Source of the DNA: an uncultured Anaerolineaceae bacterium
GTDB lineage: Bacteria; Chloroflexota; Anaerolineae; Anaerolineales; E44-bin32
Assembly: GCA_964492745.1 (NCBI GenBank)
Contig: CAZBLT010000007.1
Location: 20,660 to 84,659 of the forward strand
Direction of reading: 5' to 3'
DNA: 64,000 nucleotides
Position numbers and translations under genes: made by a program. This document shows positions 19,498 through 62,864 of this stretch, in pieces (position 1 is the first letter of the stretch; each line of letters begins with the position of its first letter). The notes under the pieces were generated by a model that was not told the origin of the DNA, did no database searches, and was given only the letters and a program-made list of their open reading frames with translations.

Positions 19498-20958
19498 CTA
19501 GCGGGCCGATTCCGCGACCTCTTGGCCGAATCCAATCAGCGATTTGAGCTGCTCAGGGGAGCCGGCTTCAGCATATACCCGCAGAACAGGTTCCGTTCCT
19601 GAAGGCCGGATCAATAGCCATGAGTCGTCCTCCAGCATGTATTTTACGCCGTCGAGCGTAGAAACCTCGGCGACGGTCGAAGCGCCAATCTTGGCGGGCG
19701 CGGCCCCGGCGAGCCGGGCGACCATGCGCTCCTTGACGACCGGTCGCGAGAGCCGCAGGTCAACCCGCTCGTAGTGTGCCGGGCCAACCTCTGCCAGCAG
19801 ATCTGCGACCAGGGTTTCTAAAGGTGCATCTTGCGCCGCCACCATCTCCAGCAGCAGCAAGCCCATTAGGATCCCGTCGCCCTCAGGGATGTTGCCCTTG
19901 ATGCTGATGCCTCCTGACTCTTCGCCCCCGATGAGAACATCATCTCGCAGGATCCATTCGGCGATGTGGTTGAATCCAACGGGGGTTTCCACCACTTCCA
20001 GCCCGTACCGAGCCGCTAGGCGATTGATCATCTGAGTGGTGGAAACGGTCTTAACGACTTTGCCAGTCCAACCGCGAGTTTCCACCAAGTATTTCAGCGC
20101 CAGGGCCATGATACGGTGTGGGTCGATGAACTGCCCGCGCCCATCCATGGCACCGATGCGGTCTGCATCGCCATCGGTGGCCAGCCCCATCTGGCCGCGG
20201 CCGGCGGCGATGGCCCCTGCCAGGGCGCCCAGGTAACGGGCGATGGGCTCGGGATGGATTCCTCCGAAGCCTGGGTTCATCTCGCCCCGGATTTCGAAGA
20301 CCTCACAGCCGCTACCCTGCAGGATGCCCTTGATCTGGCCTCGGCCCGACCCATACATCGAATCCACCACAAGATGCTGAGGGTTGTCGGCGATGATATC
20401 GAAGCGGATGAGGCCACGGAGATGGTCGTAATAGGCAGGAGTGGGGTTGAAGCGCTCGATCAACCCGGCCTCGCGGGCTTGCTCGTAATCCATCAAGTTG
20501 GGGCCGCGCCCGCGGGCCTCGTTATCGTTGAGGTAGACCTCGACGCGCCGGCATTGCTCCCGGGCCGCCGAACTTCCATAGGCGGCTTTCAGCTTAACGC
20601 CGCTATAGCGGGGCGCGTTGTGGGAGGCGGTGATCATCAATCCGGCGATGGCGCCCAGGTGCCGCACGGCGTGGGAAACCGCGGGTGTGGGGGCATCCGC
20701 GGCCGTTAGATAGACCTTATAGCCGTTGGCGGCAAGCACGCGGGCGGCTTCCGCCGCGTATCGATCGGAGAGAAAGCGGGTGTCGAAACCCACTACCATG
20801 CGGTGCGGATCGGGTTTGGGACCCTCAAAGGAACCGTTCAGCCACTCATCGGAAGCGACTGCGTCGGCGATGGCCTGGGCCACCAGACGTAGGTTGTGAA
20901 AGGTGAAGGTGTCTGAGATGACCCCCCGCCATCCGTCCGTACCGAAATGAATTGGCAT
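19498..20958 (-). CDS. Phosphoglucomutase/phosphomannomutase family protein
   Basis: FGTDGWRG, TASHN phosphoserine loop, DGDADR metal loop, GGEESGG, RPSGTEP. Confidence 0.95.
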   Translation of the reverse strand: MPIHFGTDGWRGVISDTFTFHNLRLVAQAIADAVASDEWLNGSFEGPKPDPHRMVVGFDTRFLSDRYAAEAARVLAANGYKVYLTAADAPTPAVSHAVRHLGAIAGLMITASHNAPRYSGVKLKAAYGSSAAREQCRRVEVYLNDNEARGRGPNLMDYEQAREAGLIERFNPTPAYYDHLRGLIRFDIIADNPQHLVVDSMYGSGRGQIKGILQGSGCEVFEIRGEMNPGFGGIHPEPIARYLGALAGAIAAGRGQMGLATDGDADRIGAMDGRGQFIDPHRIMALALKYLVETRGWTGKVVKTVSTTQMINRLAARYGLEVVETPVGFNHIAEWILRDDVLIGGEESGGISIKGNIPEGDGILMGLLLLEMVAAQDAPLETLVADLLAEVGPAHYERVDLRLSRPVVKERMVARLAGAAPAKIGASTVAEVSTLDGVKYMLEDDSWLLIRPSGTEPVLRVYAEAGSPEQLKSLIGFGQEVAESAR

Positions 20959-26075: not shown

Positions 26076-27755
26076 CTAGGGAACCCCCTCTGAATCCGTT
26101 GAGGGGGGATCTATCAGAAGACCCAGGCGAGCCGCGGCGTCTCGAAGCCGCGGCCAATTCTTTTCCGGGACGGCAATCGCGGTCGGCCCCAAGGCTTCTC
26201 CCAGGTAGCGGCGGGTGGAAGGGTGCGATTGGAGCATCTCCAATGCCGAGGGCTCTTTGACACGCAGTACCAGGCTTCGCTCGAGGCGGGCTTCCAACCC
26301 CGCAGCGTGCCAGCGAGAAATGGCCTGCTTGAGTGAGGGCGGCAGGGCTCCAGCGCTCGCCTCCTCCAGGATCCGCAGAATATGAACCTCCCGGAGCCCC
26401 TGATCCAAGGCTCGCCGGAGGGATGTCGGCGTCAGGCGGTAGCGGTACCCCAGCCGGTTGGGAAAATCCCAGTCGCTGATGCGTGCAAGCTGGTAACGCA
26501 AGGCCCGGGGGGCATCATAGGGGACCTGCAGGCTCCCATCCGCGCGCAGGGTCACTTGCCCGTACCTTGGCTCGAGGTCGATCTTGGACTCGGGCGAAAT
26601 CAACATCTGCCAGGGTGGTGCCAGCCGGAACGCCGTGATGGCTCCCTGTTCGCTCGGACGGCCGGTGTCGGTTGCGCCCAGCCAATGCAGCGGCCCTTGA
26701 ATGAGGCAGCGCAGGAATGCGCCGTCTACCTCATCCCAGTATTCAAAGCCGCGCAGGAATGTGCCCTTGGCATCCTGCAGATACCAGGATTCGAAGTCTG
26801 CCCCGGGGCGCAGGAAGGAGGGATCCCGCGCCCTGACATCTGCAATGAAGCTCTCGAGGTTCCACCAAACACCGGGCGGGATGGTTTCCAGCAACGCCAT
26901 TGCTGCCTGGCGCGAAAGCAGCGGATCGTTTGGCCACCCGGCCCTGCCTGGCCGCAAATAAGGCACGGCGGCCAGGTCATTCCATCGTCGGGACCCCAGC
27001 CAGCTTCTCAAGAGGCCTGAGAGCGCCGGGCCATCCGGCGCCTCGAGGAAAGCGGCTGCCGCCTCGGCAGCCGGCTTGAGCGGCTTCGGCTGGAGCATCC
27101 GGGTTTCCAAAAGCAGGGCCAGCAGCATGTCCAACGCCTCAGGGTAGTGGAGATGGGGCCGCAGCGCAGCCATGCGTTCGGGGGGGAGGTTTTCCTGCGC
27201 GGAGGGTTGGGCCCGCAAAGCCGCAAGCAGTGTGGTGGCATCGTCCAGGATGCGGCCATCTGCCAGGCATGGATAGGCCGGCGGGGGGCATGCCTGGCCA
27301 AGAGGGGCCTTGGAGGAACTGGCCTGCGGCTGCAATGCAGCACGCAGGTCTTCGGGAATATAGGCGAATTCCAGGGGCCCCTTGGGCGTGTCGAAGAAGG
27401 CACGATCGATCAGAGCCCGGTACCAGAGCGCCTCGGTGGCAGATGCCGGGTTGCGCCATGGCTTCTGCCGATCCAGCCTGCCAGGACCCATGGCCCGCAG
27501 CTGGCCGTAGCGGCGCTCGAAGTCCGCCATCGGAATTCGACCGCCCTGCTGAATCAGATGATCGAGCGCTTGCCTAGCCTGCGCGGGAAGCGACGAGATG
27601 CACTCCTCGAGCCATGGAGACTGGCTCAGCATTCCTGCCAAGGCCGATGCGGCTTGATCGGCGGGGCCGGAAGGAAGATCGATGCCCCAAAGCTCTGCTA
27701 CGATCTGCAGGAAGCTTGCATCCCGGTCCCGGAGACATTGAGCAAGCGTTCGCAT
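26076..27755 (-). CDS. XPB/Ssl2 helicase-associated domain protein (Helicase_C_3-like)
   Basis: C-terminal YRLTPTSLRRALDQGL....ILRILEE....LPPSLKQAISRW pattern; GPLHWLG. No helicase motifs. Confidence 0.7.
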   Translation of the reverse strand: MRTLAQCLRDRDASFLQIVAELWGIDLPSGPADQAASALAGMLSQSPWLEECISSLPAQARQALDHLIQQGGRIPMADFERRYGQLRAMGPGRLDRQKPWRNPASATEALWYRALIDRAFFDTPKGPLEFAYIPEDLRAALQPQASSSKAPLGQACPPPAYPCLADGRILDDATTLLAALRAQPSAQENLPPERMAALRPHLHYPEALDMLLALLLETRMLQPKPLKPAAEAAAAFLEAPDGPALSGLLRSWLGSRRWNDLAAVPYLRPGRAGWPNDPLLSRQAAMALLETIPPGVWWNLESFIADVRARDPSFLRPGADFESWYLQDAKGTFLRGFEYWDEVDGAFLRCLIQGPLHWLGATDTGRPSEQGAITAFRLAPPWQMLISPESKIDLEPRYGQVTLRADGSLQVPYDAPRALRYQLARISDWDFPNRLGYRYRLTPTSLRRALDQGLREVHILRILEEASAGALPPSLKQAISRWHAAGLEARLERSLVLRVKEPSALEMLQSHPSTRRYLGEALGPTAIAVPEKNWPRLRDAAARLGLLIDPPSTDSEGVP

Positions 27756-27788: not shown

Positions 27789-28703
27789 CTAGGCGATGAG
27801 ATTAATTTCGCCTGGAAGCACGCGGATGTGGAGTTCGGTGACGTCAGAGGAGAAACCGGCGAAGATCTCCCCATCTGTGTGGATGGTCACCGGGCGTTCC
27901 GAAGTCAGGTGGAGCTCTTTGAACTGGCCCATGCGAACTGCGGGAAAGCGTCCGTGGGTGCCGTTCATCACCTCGGGGATCAATCGGAACATCATAGGGC
28001 GCGACACGCGCTGGATCATGGCGTAGTGCAACAAGCCGTCGTCAGGAATGGCATCGGGCGCGACGTGGAAGCCACCGCCCTCCCGAGGCCCGTTGCAAGC
28101 CACGAACATCAATACCTCTTGTTCGAATTGCTCCTCGTCGGTTTGGATCACCATCCTGGGCGCGTCATGATTGCGGATGATGGTCTGTATTACCGCCCAA
28201 AGGTACATAGTGAACCCTTGCAGGCGAGTGATCTGATAGGAGTGGATTGTGACGGAGGCATCGAAGCCGATGCCCAGCGTGTTGTCCCAATACTCGATGC
28301 GGCCGGAGCCATCGCGCACTTCGGCGAGATCGATCGGACGGGATACGCCGTTGAATACCCGTTCCATCGCACGCTCGATCTCTTGTGGTATGCCCACATT
28401 GGAGCAAAAATCATTGCCCGAGCCGATCGGCACTGCGGCTAAGGCTGGGCGCTGTTCCTTCGGGATGCGCATGAGGCCGTTGACCACCTCGTGGACGGTC
28501 CCGTCGCCCCCCAGCGCGGCTACGATCTCATAGCCCTCTCGTGCGGCTTCTTCGGCGAGCTCGGTAGCATGGGTAGGATATTCTGTGGCCGACCAGGAGG
28601 CGCCGCCCCAGCGCATAAGGATAGGTTGAAGCGAGGAGGCTAATTCCCAGGATCTGCCCCGGTCGGCGTGGGGGTTAAAGATCAGCTTAACTCGTTGGGT
28701 CAT
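27789..28703 (-). CDS. Diacylglycerol/lipid kinase family protein (YegS/BmrU)
   Basis: IFNP, GGDGTVHEVVNG, PIGSGNDF, GFDA, DDG, HTDGE. Confidence 0.93.
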   Translation of the reverse strand: MTQRVKLIFNPHADRGRSWELASSLQPILMRWGGASWSATEYPTHATELAEEAAREGYEIVAALGGDGTVHEVVNGLMRIPKEQRPALAAVPIGSGNDFCSNVGIPQEIERAMERVFNGVSRPIDLAEVRDGSGRIEYWDNTLGIGFDASVTIHSYQITRLQGFTMYLWAVIQTIIRNHDAPRMVIQTDEEQFEQEVLMFVACNGPREGGGFHVAPDAIPDDGLLHYAMIQRVSRPMMFRLIPEVMNGTHGRFPAVRMGQFKELHLTSERPVTIHTDGEIFAGFSSDVTELHIRVLPGEINLIA

Positions 28704-28866
28704 CGCGAGCTGCTCCAATTCGGGAATGCCGGGGGAGGGTTGGCTAAGACTTCGAGATGGGATTGCCTGGGAGGCGGCCGCCCCTTCCGTCGGCGAGTGA
28801 TGCGATTATAGTCCAATTCTGAGTTCGCACTCATTTCGGGGTTGGAATTTTTAAGCCGAACGGTGA

Positions 28867-28896
28867 TTGACTCGCCCCCCATGGGGGTATTAAAGT
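28867..28896 (+). promoter_or_regulatory. Sigma70-type promoter pointing into the 28.9-29.2 kb intergenic region
   Basis: TTGACT (28867-72), 18 nt spacer, TAAAGT (28891-96) in an AT-rich patch; no credible + strand CDS downstream. Confidence 0.55.
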
Positions 28897-28904
28897 GAAA
28901 GTAT

Positions 28905-29177
28905 CAAGAGCCCCAGGCCACCAATGGGCTGCAAGTCCCAAAGGGCCGCGGCAACCTCCGGCAAATCCCCCGGATTCCCCTCTACGAGGCGGGCCCGGAG
29001 GAAAGCGCCGACCGACTGGAGGAACGCCCTTTCGCTGCGGCACGACCGGCGGGACCCTTCCGGCAAAAGCGGCAGTGCCGGCCGCCCGGCGGATGGCAGG
29101 GGGCTCACCCCTTGTCGTTCGAACTCGGTTGATGGATTCCTGGGTGCGGCCCGCGCGCAGTCCACATGCCTGGGCCC
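28905..29177 (+). ncRNA. Candidate ~270-nt structured non-coding RNA (family unassigned)
   Basis: Nested end-to-end helices 28912-18/29168-74, 28925-32/29157-64 and 28943-49/29146-52, plus internal multi-branch stems. G-U pairs are consistent only with the + strand. Promoter upstream. Confidence 0.6.
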
Positions 29178-30445
29178 TACTCGGATGCCAAGGGGTCCCC
29201 GCCCGTCCCCGCTACCGCCGGCAAAGGCTCGCTCTCGGCCTGCTTGAGCCTGAGCCGGAACCAGGCCGGGAGGAGAGCCAGGCTGCCCAGGCCGAAGCTG
29301 AAGAAGAAGGGTATCTGCGGGCCGAGGGCCTCCCACATGCGGCTACCAATCCATGGCGAAGGCAGGGCAATGATGCCGACCAGCGTGGCGATAAGCGCGT
29401 AGGCTATGCCCCGCAGGTGCGAGGGCGTGCCGCGTGCCACCAACGCATTGTAGGCCGGGTCAAGGAACGCGCCCCCGATGCCCAACAAGATCCACGAGAG
29501 AGCGAAACCCCAGAAGCCTGCAGACAGGGCGAAGATGAGGGGCATGGAGAGCGTGAGGATCAGTCCGAAGGTAAAACCATGGCGCTCGCTGGTGCGGTCA
29601 GAGAACCAGCCGCCGATGGGGCTGGCCAGCACCCAGGCAATTCCATGCAGGCCATCCATCCAGCCGATACCTTGCTTGCTGATGCCGGCGATATCGCTCA
29701 GGTATACCGGCATCAGGTCAAAGGAAAGCCTCAGCGAGAATTCCTTGATCCCCTCCGCGACGAGGATCCAGGTCAACAAGCCGCCGGCGAAGGCGATGGG
29801 CATGATCTCGCGGAAAGACTTCGAGAGCGGGCTCCAGTTGGCTTTCCTGGGGGATGCGCCTGAGTCGGGCGCGGCCGATCGCCGGTGCATAAAGAAGAAG
29901 ATGATGGAGGCTATGAGATAGAGCAGAAAAGCAGTTAGGAACATCGATCGGGTGCCAAAATGCTCCGCTAGGTAGCCGCCTGCCGGTGGCGCGAGGATCC
30001 AGGCCACATTAAGAAATGTCCGGCCCATGCCATATACGCGGCCACGTGCGCTTTCAGGGATAGTGTCTGCGATGTAGCTCTGGTAGGAGGGGTAGATGAG
30101 CGCTGTGGCGACGGCGAGAAGCGCCGGGCCCAGCAGGGCGACTTCCCAGCGGTGCGCCAGCGCATAGGGGATGTAGGCCAGCACGCCGGCCAGACTTCCC
30201 AGCCAGATCGTCCGCAACCGGCCGGTGACGTCCGAGAACCAGCCTCCCCAGACCCGCAGAATAATGGGCAGGATCATCGAGATGGTGAAGAAAAGCCCGA
30301 CCTCCCCGACCGAGGCGCCGATCTCGCGCAGAAAAACGGGGATCTGCACGGTGGTCATCGCCCGGGTAGCTTCTGCGAATGTCAATCCGATGAGGAATAG
30401 AATCAGGTCCTTGGTAAGTAGTGATCTTAGCGTTGGCTTGTCCAT
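29177..30445 (-). CDS. MFS transporter
   Basis: About 12 TM helices; motif A GWFSDVTGR repeated as GWFSDRTSER; RGRVYG. Confidence 0.93.
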   Translation of the reverse strand: MDKPTLRSLLTKDLILFLIGLTFAEATRAMTTVQIPVFLREIGASVGEVGLFFTISMILPIILRVWGGWFSDVTGRLRTIWLGSLAGVLAYIPYALAHRWEVALLGPALLAVATALIYPSYQSYIADTIPESARGRVYGMGRTFLNVAWILAPPAGGYLAEHFGTRSMFLTAFLLYLIASIIFFFMHRRSAAPDSGASPRKANWSPLSKSFREIMPIAFAGGLLTWILVAEGIKEFSLRLSFDLMPVYLSDIAGISKQGIGWMDGLHGIAWVLASPIGGWFSDRTSERHGFTFGLILTLSMPLIFALSAGFWGFALSWILLGIGGAFLDPAYNALVARGTPSHLRGIAYALIATLVGIIALPSPWIGSRMWEALGPQIPFFFSFGLGSLALLPAWFRLRLKQAESEPLPAVAGTGGDPLASE

Positions 30446-37317: not shown

Positions 37318-38433
37318 TCAATGAAGTATCCGCGCTAAAGCCCCAAGCAGCATGACCACATTCTCCGCCCGGCTTGAGTGCCCCATCAGACCAATGCGCC
37401 AAACGCGGCCCCTCAATGTACCGAGCCCTCCGGCAATCTCCAGATTGAACTCATCAAGTAGCCGCTGGCGCACGCGGGCCTCGTCCAGGCCCTCCGGGAT
37501 CGAGACCGTCGTGAGCGTGGGCAGGCGGTGGTCCAGGGGGATGAAGGCCGGCAGATCGAGCTCGGCCAGACCTTCCCAGAGAAGTTCAGCGTTGCGGCGG
37601 TGGCGCTCGAACCTGGCCTGCAAGCCCTCCTCCGTGATCAGGCGCAGCGCCTCACGCAGGGCGAAATTCATGCTGATGGGAGCGGTGTGATGGTAGGTCC
37701 GCTCCGGCCCCCAGTATTTCAAGACCATCGTGAGATCGAGATACCAGTTGGGGACCTTGCTCTTGCGCGATTGGAGAACCTCGACTGCTCGGGGCGAAAG
37801 CGCGAGAGGGGCGAGGCCGGGCGGGGCGCTGAGGCATTTCTGGGTACCGCTATAGGCAATGTCGATGCCGACCTCCTGCATGCGCACCGGCAGGCCGCCG
37901 AGCGAAGTAACGGCGTCGACGAGCAAGAGGGCGCCATGTCGGTGAACGGTTTCGGCGATTTCCTCCAGCGGCTGCAATGCACCGGTGGAGGTTTCGGCGT
38001 GCACGATGGCCACGAGCTTCTTCGGACGCGCCTTCAGCACCTCTTCGATCTGCGATGCTGTGAAGATCTCACCCCATGCCACCTTGATCCGCTCGACATC
38101 GGCGCGATAGCGCCGGGCCATGTCGATCATGCGGTCGCCGAAGTAGCCATTTACGCAGATCAAGATTGGATCGCCCTCCTCGATGAAGTTGCATAGGGCG
38201 GCCTCCATGCCGGCGCTTCCGGTTCCCGAGATAGGGATGGTGAGGGCGTCAGGGGCCTCGAAGACCATCCGCAAGAGTTCCTGCACTTCGTTCATCAGAT
38301 GGATGAATTGGGGGTCGAGATGCCCGACGAGGGGGGTGGCCATGGCCCTCAACACGCGTGGATGGACCATGCTGGGCCCAGGCCCCAAGAGGATCCGGGG
38401 GGAGGTGTTGAGATCCGAGTATGGAGATGCCAT
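37318..38433 (-). CDS. Alanine/serine-glyoxylate aminotransferase family (class V PLP enzyme)
   Basis: LLGPGPS, SGTGSAGME, VHAETSTG, VDAVTS, SGTQKCLSAPPG, YHHTAP, WRIGLMG. Start at ATG 38433. Confidence 0.93.
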   Translation of the reverse strand: MASPYSDLNTSPRILLGPGPSMVHPRVLRAMATPLVGHLDPQFIHLMNEVQELLRMVFEAPDALTIPISGTGSAGMEAALCNFIEEGDPILICVNGYFGDRMIDMARRYRADVERIKVAWGEIFTASQIEEVLKARPKKLVAIVHAETSTGALQPLEEIAETVHRHGALLLVDAVTSLGGLPVRMQEVGIDIAYSGTQKCLSAPPGLAPLALSPRAVEVLQSRKSKVPNWYLDLTMVLKYWGPERTYHHTAPISMNFALREALRLITEEGLQARFERHRRNAELLWEGLAELDLPAFIPLDHRLPTLTTVSIPEGLDEARVRQRLLDEFNLEIAGGLGTLRGRVWRIGLMGHSSRAENVVMLLGALARILH

Positions 38434-60071: not shown

Positions 60072-60144
60072 CGGGGTGTAGCGCAGATGGAAGCGCGCCG
60101 CGTTTGGGACGCGGAGGTCGGCGGTTCAAGTCCGCCCACCCCGA
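60072..60144 (+). tRNA. tRNA-Pro(TGG), CCA not encoded
   Basis: Acceptor stem CGGGGTG/CACCCCG, anticodon arm CCGCG-TTTGGGA-CGCGG, T-loop TTCAAGT. Confidence 0.96.
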
Positions 60145-60597: not shown

Positions 60598-60669
60598 GCG
60601 GGCGTCGCCAAGAGGTAAGGCATCAGCCTTCCAAGCTGACATTCGCCGGTTCGAATCCGGTCGCCCGCT
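60598..60669 (+). tRNA. tRNA-Gly(TCC), CCA not encoded
   Basis: Acceptor stem GCGGGCG/CGCCCGC, anticodon arm TCAGC-CTTCCAA-GCTGA, T-loop TTCGAAT. Confidence 0.96.
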
Positions 60670-62791: not shown

Positions 62792-62864
62792 GGGCCCGTA
62801 GCTCAGTGGTTAGAGCGGCCGGCTCATAACCGGTTGGTCGCAGGTTCGAATCCTGCCGGGCCCA
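62792..62864 (+). tRNA. tRNA with CAT anticodon, probably tRNA-Ile2 (lysidine-modified)
   Basis: Acceptor stem GGGCCCG/CGGGCCC, TAGCTCAGTGGTTAGAGC D-arm, CTCATAA loop. No C1-A72 mismatch or triple G-C anticodon stem of fMet; body resembles Ile2. TGcTACAAT promoter just upstream. Confidence 0.88.

Follow-up and report, generated by a model that had tools for sequence, protein, structure and literature searches.

A stand-alone structured RNA, read as a new class, encoded between two protein genes in one family of Anaerolineales

Introduction

The locus considered here is the gap between a lipid kinase gene and a major facilitator superfamily (MFS) transporter gene in the genome of an uncultured Anaerolineaceae bacterium, and the question it raises is whether the gap encodes an RNA, where such an RNA begins and ends, and what it might do. 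The DNA analysed (the window) is a stretch of 64,000 nucleotides (nt), positions 20,660 to 84,659 of contig CAZBLT010000007.1 in assembly GCA_964492745.1; coordinates are those of the window unless another contig is named. An initial annotation, made from the sequence alone, had proposed a promoter-driven, folded RNA of about 270 nt at this place. Anaerolineales are common in sediments, wetlands and digesters, and we know of almost no RNA biology for this order. To our knowledge, few large, well-folded bacterial RNAs lack an assigned function, and all of them have so far led to new biochemistry.

We read the locus as encoding a new class of stable structured noncoding RNA (ncRNA); its comparative support is good, there is a first hint of its expression, and its taxonomic range is narrow. 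Our best explanation, to which we give a probability of roughly 0.6, is that the gap encodes, as a gene of its own, a stable and highly structured + strand RNA of about 200 nt, which belongs to an undescribed family and acts in trans as a protein-binding RNA.

Results

Extent and expression of the RNA

Alignment of 27 homologous sequences revealed three conserved blocks, namely the upstream element together with the -35 and -10 hexamers, the RNA itself from GAGCCCC (28908) to GGGGCUC (29100-29106), and a short U-rich tail. Sequences beyond about 29113 could not be aligned, and BLAST comparisons indicated that the homology ends at about 29113 in all relatives but the nearest one. In a public metatranscriptome (run X1, labelled hydrothermal vent metagenome) a single contig mapped onto 28500-29500, with a word depth of 197 and with ends lying 3 and 2 nt inside the ends of the closing helix P1 (Table 1). 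No other contig of run X1 was found over the 400 nt on either side of it, and this absence of flanking cover, in the contigs of one small run, says nothing firm on read-through. Since the 194-nt contig is confined to 28911-29104, it points to a discrete, abundant and stable RNA bounded by the closing helix, and the mature RNA is taken as about 28908-29106, with about 200-210 nt for the whole RNA.

These limits differ from those of the initial annotation, in which the RNA measured about 270 nt and ended at the stop codon of the MFS gene, with a + strand transcript of about 28903-29177 expected in metatranscriptomes. A discrete and abundant RNA contig was indeed recovered, but it ends at 29104 and its strand is invisible. 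The start of the primary transcript is placed at about 28903 from the geometry of the promoter.

A run of at least three T occurs within 15 nt after P1 in 54 of 66 copies. Of the helices proposed initially, GGCAGGGGG/CCCCTTGTC survives as a terminator-like hairpin at the 3' end, which has sequence in common with the 3' strand of P1, the true closing helix. This hairpin is partly supported by the replacement of G-C by A-U in three relatives (L023, L024 and L025); it is absent in several genera, where the U-tract directly follows P1, and a consensus terminator scan did not call it at 29098-29113.

The gap is non-coding, as had been proposed. The lengths of 117 copies fell into all three residues modulo 3 (47/41/29) and the entropy by position modulo 3 was 0.94/0.95/0.92, indicating no three-base periodicity; runs of 20-40 invariant bases occur in the RNA copies.

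Table 1. Coordinates of the RNA gene, its predicted structural elements and the flanking genes
Feature	Position	Strand	Remarks
Conserved A/T-rich upstream element	28848-28866	+	TTTTTAAG at 28848-28855, then GC..CG
Sigma-70-type promoter	28867-28896	+	-35 TTGACT 28867-28872, 18-nt spacer, -10 TAAAGT 28891-28896
Predicted primary transcript	28903-29113	+	start about 7 nt past -10; end in U-rich tail after closing helix
Metatranscriptome contig, 194 nt	28911-29104	not shown by contigs	100% identical, depth 197
P1	28908-28914 (GAGCCCC) with 29100-29106 (GGGGCUC)	+	covariation
AG/AG 2x2 internal loop	between P1 and P1b	+	invariant
P1b	28917, 28919-28922 with 29091-29095, 29097	+	covariation
P2	28925-28929 with 29084-29088	+	up to five pair types per pair
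P3	28935-28938 (GUCC) with 29052-29055 (GGAC)	+	covariation
P4	28945-28952 (GCCGCGGC) with 29034-29041 (GCUGCGGC)	+	7 of 8 pairs changed on both sides
P5	28956-28961 (CUCCGG) with 29016-29021 (CUGGAG)	+	found by all-against-all covariation scan
Apical domain	28962-29015	+	semi-conserved 5' joiner; hairpin variable in sequence and length; conserved single-stranded AGCGCCGAC(C) at 29005-29014
Asymmetric P5/P4 internal loop	29022-29033	+	contains GCCCUU; 11-12 nt
P7 hairpin (CCGGCA/UGCCGG)	29060-29065 with 29076-29081	+	branch of three-way junction with P2 and P3
Alternative terminator-like hairpin A-GGGGG-CUCA-CCCC-UU	29098-29113	+	G-run common to P1 3' strand
YegS/Rv2252/BmrU-type lipid kinase gene	27789-28718	-	upstream of the RNA gene
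MFS transporter gene	29177-30445	-	

Secondary structure and covariation

Consensus folding with RNAalifold on 27 and then on 34 sequences paired the two ends of the RNA (28908-28914 with 29100-29106), with compensatory changes in 12 of 45 and 16 of 42 pairs, respectively. A covariance model of 210 positions, R1, was built from the 34 sequences and used to align 66 diverse members of the family; 94.5% of the cells were standard pairs and 28 of the 42 pairs had changed on both sides. None of 500 column shuffles scored as high, and sliding the 3' partners by 1-3 columns reduced the values to 38-50% paired cells and 6-13 pairs. A motif scan of metagenome contigs gave at least 118 further copies, and among 80 such loci checked 75 matched R1 at E<=1e-8, 74 of them over the full length.

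The structure was then revised to 41 pairs and counted by script on the merged match columns of both R1 alignments (115 distinct sequences), where 95.6% of the cells were paired and 34 of the 41 pairs carried compensatory changes. The corresponding controls gave 32-47% paired cells and 15-19 pairs after sliding, and after shuffling they did not exceed 88.5% and 25 pairs. The covariation among homologues that the initial annotation had proposed to look for is thus present. Within the 41 pairs there were 409 G-U cells against 59 A-C cells, which restricts the structure to the + strand and bears out the earlier argument from G-U pairs.

Individual pairs varied widely among the 115 sequences. Pair 28913-29101 of P1 occurred as UG in 61, CG in 33 and UA in 17, pair 28936-29054 of P3 as CG in 74, UA in 31, UG in five and AU in two, and pair 28956-29021 of P5 in six standard types; pair 28929-29084 of P2 was added from the all-against-all covariation scan. 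The best predicted structure of 28905-29108 recovers P1, P1b, P2, P3, P4 and P7. Two helices given by RNAalifold and used in R1, CGGC/GCCG (28959-28962 with 29007-29010) and GGAG./.CCUU (around 29014-29033), were replaced by P5 after the covariation scan.

The complementary segments listed in the initial annotation are all in the sequence, and CGGCAC/GTGCCG among them corresponds to the conserved P7 hairpin. CCTCCGG/CCGGAGG could form in this genome, but across the family CUCCGG pairs with CUGGAG, with strong covariation. The three outer helices that were to close the 270-nt fold are reproduced by the minimum free energy (MFE) structure of 28900-29180, but their 3' partners (29146-29174) lie outside both the conserved RNA and the RNA contig. 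So do the 3' partners of CGACCGA/TCGGTTG and GAACG/CGTTC (29118-29132). In the closest relative (locus L002), which is 91% identical, the 3' segments of all these helices are changed and the 5' partners are unchanged. By this comparison of sequences these helices are chance complementarity in G+C-rich DNA, and the 270-nt fold was rejected.

Bases conserved in at least 97% of the 115 sequences are mostly unpaired. They comprise GCCCUU, which is unpaired in the supported structure, the GC(C) of AGCGCCGAC in the apical loop, the UGC of the junction and most of the P7 loop; the invariant AG/AG loop likewise lies outside the helices. The P7 loop is 10-12 nt long and reads AAGAGCGGCAGU in most genera, being shortened or altered in five divergent copies (L076 and L137 to L140).

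The all-against-all scan of the 115 sequences detected no pseudoknot or tertiary pair, only single and phylogenetically confounded columns, and invariant bases cannot covary. A kissing contact between GCAG of the P7 loop and CUGC of the junction was considered and found unsupported, as genera with a UUGA or UCGA junction keep the loop unchanged. Pairing of the U/C in GCCCUU(U/C) with the A/G of the P7 loop showed no mismatch in 102 sequences, but the neighbouring bases are unpairable and the change looks like a single event in one genus; it was left out.

The conservation of an unpaired C/U-rich loop raises the possibility of a base-pairing small RNA (sRNA), in which the invariant GCCCUUYC would be a seed for the purine-rich ribosome-binding sites of mRNAs. 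C-rich seeds occur in other sRNAs, and a U-rich 3' tail like the present one is found in many of them. However, covarying long-range helices take up about 80 of the 200 nt, unusually for an sRNA of the seed type, and the several further invariant loops would be left without explanation; we regard a seed-type sRNA as very unlikely.

Promoter and upstream element

The sequence TTGACT-N18-TAAAGT is present where the initial annotation had placed a promoter and is the sole such site in 28500-29500, where shuffles predict 0.2 +/- 0.6; TTGACN-N16-18-TANNNT was found upstream of 65 of the 66 copies. The distance from the end of the -10 hexamer to the first base of P1 is 8-14 nt in the 66 copies, mostly 11-12. 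Their alignment also revealed a conserved region at about -40 to -65, (T)AGTACC-TTTTTTAAG-CG..CG, with TTT(N)AAG in 64 of 66 copies and GTAC..TTT in 41 of 66. In most other genera (T)AGTACC precedes the A/T-rich part; the present genome is without the AGTAC part.

The combination TTTTAAG-N9-14-TTGAC occurs only twice in this genome. In five other genomes of the family the extended upstream motif was found zero or one time per genome, with three matches in total, and all three lie about 30 bases upstream of a match to the RNA model. A role of this motif as a general promoter of stable RNAs was considered and ruled out, as these five genomes show it only at the RNA gene.

The second site in the present genome precedes genes resembling those of pyrimidine synthesis. 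It lies at 37468-37530 (+) of contig C11 (L034, 608-670), and no further promoter-like TTTTTTAAG-N-TTGAC site occurs in the genome; the two genes downstream of it encode a dihydroorotase-like amidohydrolase and an aspartate carbamoyltransferase. No Rfam family matched the leader at this site, of roughly 110-250 nt, at E<=1.

Taxonomic distribution

In a BLAST comparison with 60 related genomes, 36 of them from the same family and 24 from 17 other families in the order, the region was detected in 29 of the former and in none of the latter. The RNA gene is single-copy in the present genome, and R1 found it once and at full length in 85 of the 98 family genomes searched, representing 22 of 24 genera. 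For at least three of the 13 misses (L301, L302 and L303, in genomes G100, G073 and G061) the contig (C40, C97 and C70, respectively) breaks off at the RNA locus, 167-442 nt upstream of the kinase start. In one genome (G215) the RNA is split across two contig ends (L119 and L141). Assemblies seem to break at the RNA gene.

In the rest of the order the R1 search gave only 16.5-21.4 bits, with matches that were short or without synteny, and in 150 other genomes of the class only 19.6-24.3 bits; both were treated as noise. At 24 orthologous kinase loci of sister families R1 did not exceed 14.6 bits with filters off, and Rfam gave no match at gathering score over 20 of these 24 loci. A motif scan of one genome per GTDB species yielded 33 loci, 31 of which were true copies by nhmmer, and 30 of the 31 were labelled Anaerolineae or Chloroflexota. 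No copy was found in viral contigs by motif scan, nor in plasmids and phages by BLAST with the present copy. By these sequence searches the RNA gene is chromosomal, vertically inherited and, as far as searched, confined to one family of Anaerolineales.

A full copy of the RNA was also present in a bin labelled Methanosarcinales archaeon (JAIWHF010000040.1, 1395-1612; L044), where nhmmer gave 233 bits, the same score as for locus L015. The contig is probably a mis-binned bacterial contig.

Gene neighbourhood

Both flanking genes lie on the - strand, so that the + strand RNA diverges from the kinase gene and converges on the transporter gene; the open reading frame of the latter ends at 29177, in the convergent orientation reported initially. 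The gene order in the family is helicase-domain protein (-), lipid kinase (-), RNA (+) and MFS or HAD hydrolase (-). Among the 66 loci a near-full-length kinase lies upstream of the RNA in 60, kinase fragments in two and a directly adjacent helicase-domain gene in two, upstream sequence being missing for the other two. A convergent MFS or HAD homologue lies downstream, on the opposite strand, in 58 of the 66 loci, and a same-strand homologue in none. The downstream gene varies by genus and the RNA stays constant.

These observations bear on whether the RNA could be a cis element, that is, a riboswitch-like ON switch, an antisense or interfering RNA acting on the convergent MFS or HAD gene, or the leader of the lipid kinase gene on the - strand. 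Such an element would fit the overlap of the P1 3' strand with the terminator-like hairpin and the constant position between the same genes. Nevertheless, there is no + strand homologue downstream in the 66 loci, the RNA contig stops at 29104 without read-through cover, the excess of G-U over A-C cells and the promoter exclude the - strand, and the downstream gene differs between genera with the RNA unchanged. We consider a role in cis most improbable.

In four genomes (G186, G226, G225 and G221; L118, L130, L132 and L135) the lipid kinase is absent or fragmentary, and the RNA and the helicase-domain gene remain adjacent. In the window the latter gene (26076-27755, -) encodes a protein of 559 amino acids whose sole domain match is Helicase_C_3 (residues 403-521) and which bears a weak resemblance to the N-terminal region of the repair helicase XPB. 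The helicase-domain and lipid kinase genes are always linked, also in sister families without the RNA. The sole Rfam matches at gathering score across the window are three tRNA genes on the + strand (60072-60144, 60598-60669 and 62792-62864).

Searches against known RNA classes

No Rfam 15 family matched 28000-30000 at E<=1. With 20 diverse members of the family (pieces of 215-240 nt) Rfam gave six weak matches at E<=10, of 15.6-18.6 bits, to six unrelated families, none of them recurring and including a CRISPR repeat, two microRNAs and Xist exon 4. The Rfam comparison suggested in the initial annotation thus yielded no significant family, and the novelty of the RNA stands. A full-text literature search turned up no paper on a structured RNA of Anaerolineales among the texts accessible to it, and the main texts of two genome-by-genome discovery papers (PMC11109978, PMC8632094), as far as accessible, contained neither Chloroflex* nor Anaerolinea*.

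The initial annotation had offered a divergent 6S- or Ms1-like RNA as one of two options. In this case the RNA would bind the RNA polymerase holoenzyme or core and modulate transcription globally, in keeping with an abundant and discrete molecule of about 200 nt that has paired ends and its own promoter. Some bacteria carry two 6S RNAs. Against this, a canonical 6S RNA lies elsewhere in the genome (contig C93, 287-459, -; L031; 76.5 bits), no Rfam 6S match was obtained even at E<=10 on the 20 members, and R1 stayed below 6 bits on the 6S locus. The fold is likewise different: it branches at a three-way junction, invariant bases sit in its asymmetric loops, and the long rod with a central bubble is missing. 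A polymerase-binding RNA of this kind appears quite unlikely.

The other canonical RNAs are also encoded on other contigs, namely signal recognition particle (SRP) RNA (63.6 bits), RNase P RNA (237 bits) and transfer-messenger RNA (tmRNA; 157.9 bits), and R1 reached at most 11.4 bits on the 6S, SRP, RNase P and tmRNA loci of this genome. The 3' end of the 6S RNA, GGGGCTCCTTTCTT, is similar to GGGGCUC and the U-rich tail as found in copies of the new RNA from other genera, perhaps by coincidence.

The raiA model (RF03072, gathering score 101.3 bits) had its sole match in the genome at E<=10 on contig C5, with 10.9 bits, and not at the RNA locus, and it did not match any of the 20 members at E<=10. 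This bears on a further explanation, a trans-acting sensor or catalytic RNA, that is, an orphan ornate ncRNA as proposed for raiA or OLE, whose invariant internal loops would be the ligand-binding or active site. It would account for the concentration of invariant nucleotides in unpaired loops framed by covarying helices, and the size and life-style of the RNA are similar to those of the raiA RNAs (in the parts of PMC10861870 accessible to us). On the other hand, the scan of 115 sequences revealed no pseudoknot or tertiary pair, the raiA model gave no match, and no gene association hints at a ligand, which makes a sensor or catalyst unlikely in our judgement. No gene for the TROVE protein Ro60 (PF05731) was matched in this genome, which is 91% complete, so that the absence is unproven.

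Discussion

The preferred reading, a stable protein-binding RNA acting in trans, can be set out as follows; the gene, its transcript, its fold and its distribution are results, and the partner and function are what we infer from them. Transcription would start from the RNA's own conserved sigma-70-type promoter with its A/T-rich upstream element and would end at the U-rich tract past the closing helix, which in the genus of the present genome is joined by a small hairpin. This hairpin may terminate transcription, after which P1 would form and protect the trimmed ends; such an order of events probably explains why the two overlap. The RNA accumulates as a discrete species bounded by the closing helix, with an elongated predicted fold that runs from P1, P1b and P2 to the three-way junction with P7, then through P3, P4 and P5 to the apical domain with its variable hairpin. 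The invariant loops may form a specific recognition surface. Because covarying helices frame invariant loops in an abundant, end-paired molecule, a surface-presenting role in trans is favoured, and the RNA would then be a component of a ribonucleoprotein (RNP) or a sequestering regulator, not a leader, a riboswitch or a simple antisense RNA. That its partner is a protein, of either of these two kinds, we hold to be slightly better than an even bet.

Several points weigh against this reading. The trans-acting, protein-binding step is one that we infer purely. Expression is known from one run of one study and as contigs, in which strand and true ends are invisible; RNA libraries can contain DNA, though DNA would not stop at helix ends. 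An arrangement like that of the P1 3' strand, which overlaps a terminator-like hairpin, is also found in riboswitch expression platforms. The synteny is so stable within the family that the neighbourhood yields no functional clue. The alignments used for counting covariation had themselves been fitted to a model built from this family, and shuffle tests are inflated when the sequences are related. Furthermore, the predicted folding energy is not exceptional. For 28905-29108 z was -1.39, with 21 of 200 shuffles equal or better, and for 28900-29180, the span of the initial annotation, the MFE was -131.5 against -126.4 +/- 5.4 kcal/mol in shuffles that keep the dinucleotide content (z = -0.94, 36 of 200 as good), contrary to the fold better than shuffles that had been anticipated; the - strand of that span gave z = +0.90. 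Thermodynamics cannot decide in such G+C-rich DNA, and since the fold energy is no better than that of shuffles the structural case rests on covariation.

The broader proposal of the initial annotation, that of an independent structured ncRNA driven by a promoter and possibly of a new class, is supported by the promoter, the covariation, the G-U bias, the RNA contig, the convergent genes and the lack of an Rfam match. Its 3' boundary and most of its helices were wrong. We also entertain, with low confidence, a bolder version, in which a lineage-specific, single-copy, near-universal and highly expressed ornate RNA of new fold arose in, or survived only in, one family, its loops being a ligand-binding or catalytic core (a trans sensor or ribozyme) or the RNA being the subunit of an RNP.

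For a purely computational find the support is unusually good, consisting of a conserved promoter, compensatory changes in most pairs, more than 110 distinct sequences and a discrete, abundant environmental transcript. Near-universal presence in one family, with no detection in the sister families, gives the RNA a phyletic profile usable in a search for a protein partner, and the corrected boundaries and structure define a construct, 28903-29113, that can be probed directly. If the RNA turned out to be only a lineage-specific regulatory sRNA, its interest would be moderate.

Comparison with known systems

Like 6S RNA (RF00013), which is of similar size, the new RNA is abundant and stable, has its own promoter and is closed by a helix at its ends; it differs in its branched architecture around P2, P3 and P7 and in having asymmetric loops where 6S RNA has the central bubble of its long rod. 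It resembles the bacterial Y RNAs, which measure 100-200 nt, in the long stem formed by its 5' and 3' ends, which includes a conserved internal loop, and in the U-rich 3' tail; it differs from them in that no TROVE gene was found in this genome at its 91% completeness, no Rfam match was obtained and no tRNA-like module was seen. Unlike a riboswitch or cis leader, it has no + strand homologue downstream in the 66 loci, and its RNA contig ends at 29104.

The raiA motif RNAs are independent, abundant transcripts with few if any genes in Anaerolineae, according to the accessible parts of PMC10861870. Like the new RNA, the bacterial raiA RNA described there is a stand-alone ncRNA that has a promoter of its own and measures about 200 nt; both combine numerous covarying helices with numerous unpaired bases that do not vary, and both are stably inherited by descent within clades. 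The models have 209 (raiA) and 210 (R1) positions. The two differ in that there is no match in sequence or structure between them, that raiA has two covarying pseudoknots in a P1-P8 architecture and none was found in the new RNA, whose invariant bases cannot covary, and that raiA occurs in Bacillota and Actinomycetota (same source, same parts) and the new RNA in one family of Anaerolineales. In size and life-style raiA is the nearest analogue of the new RNA.

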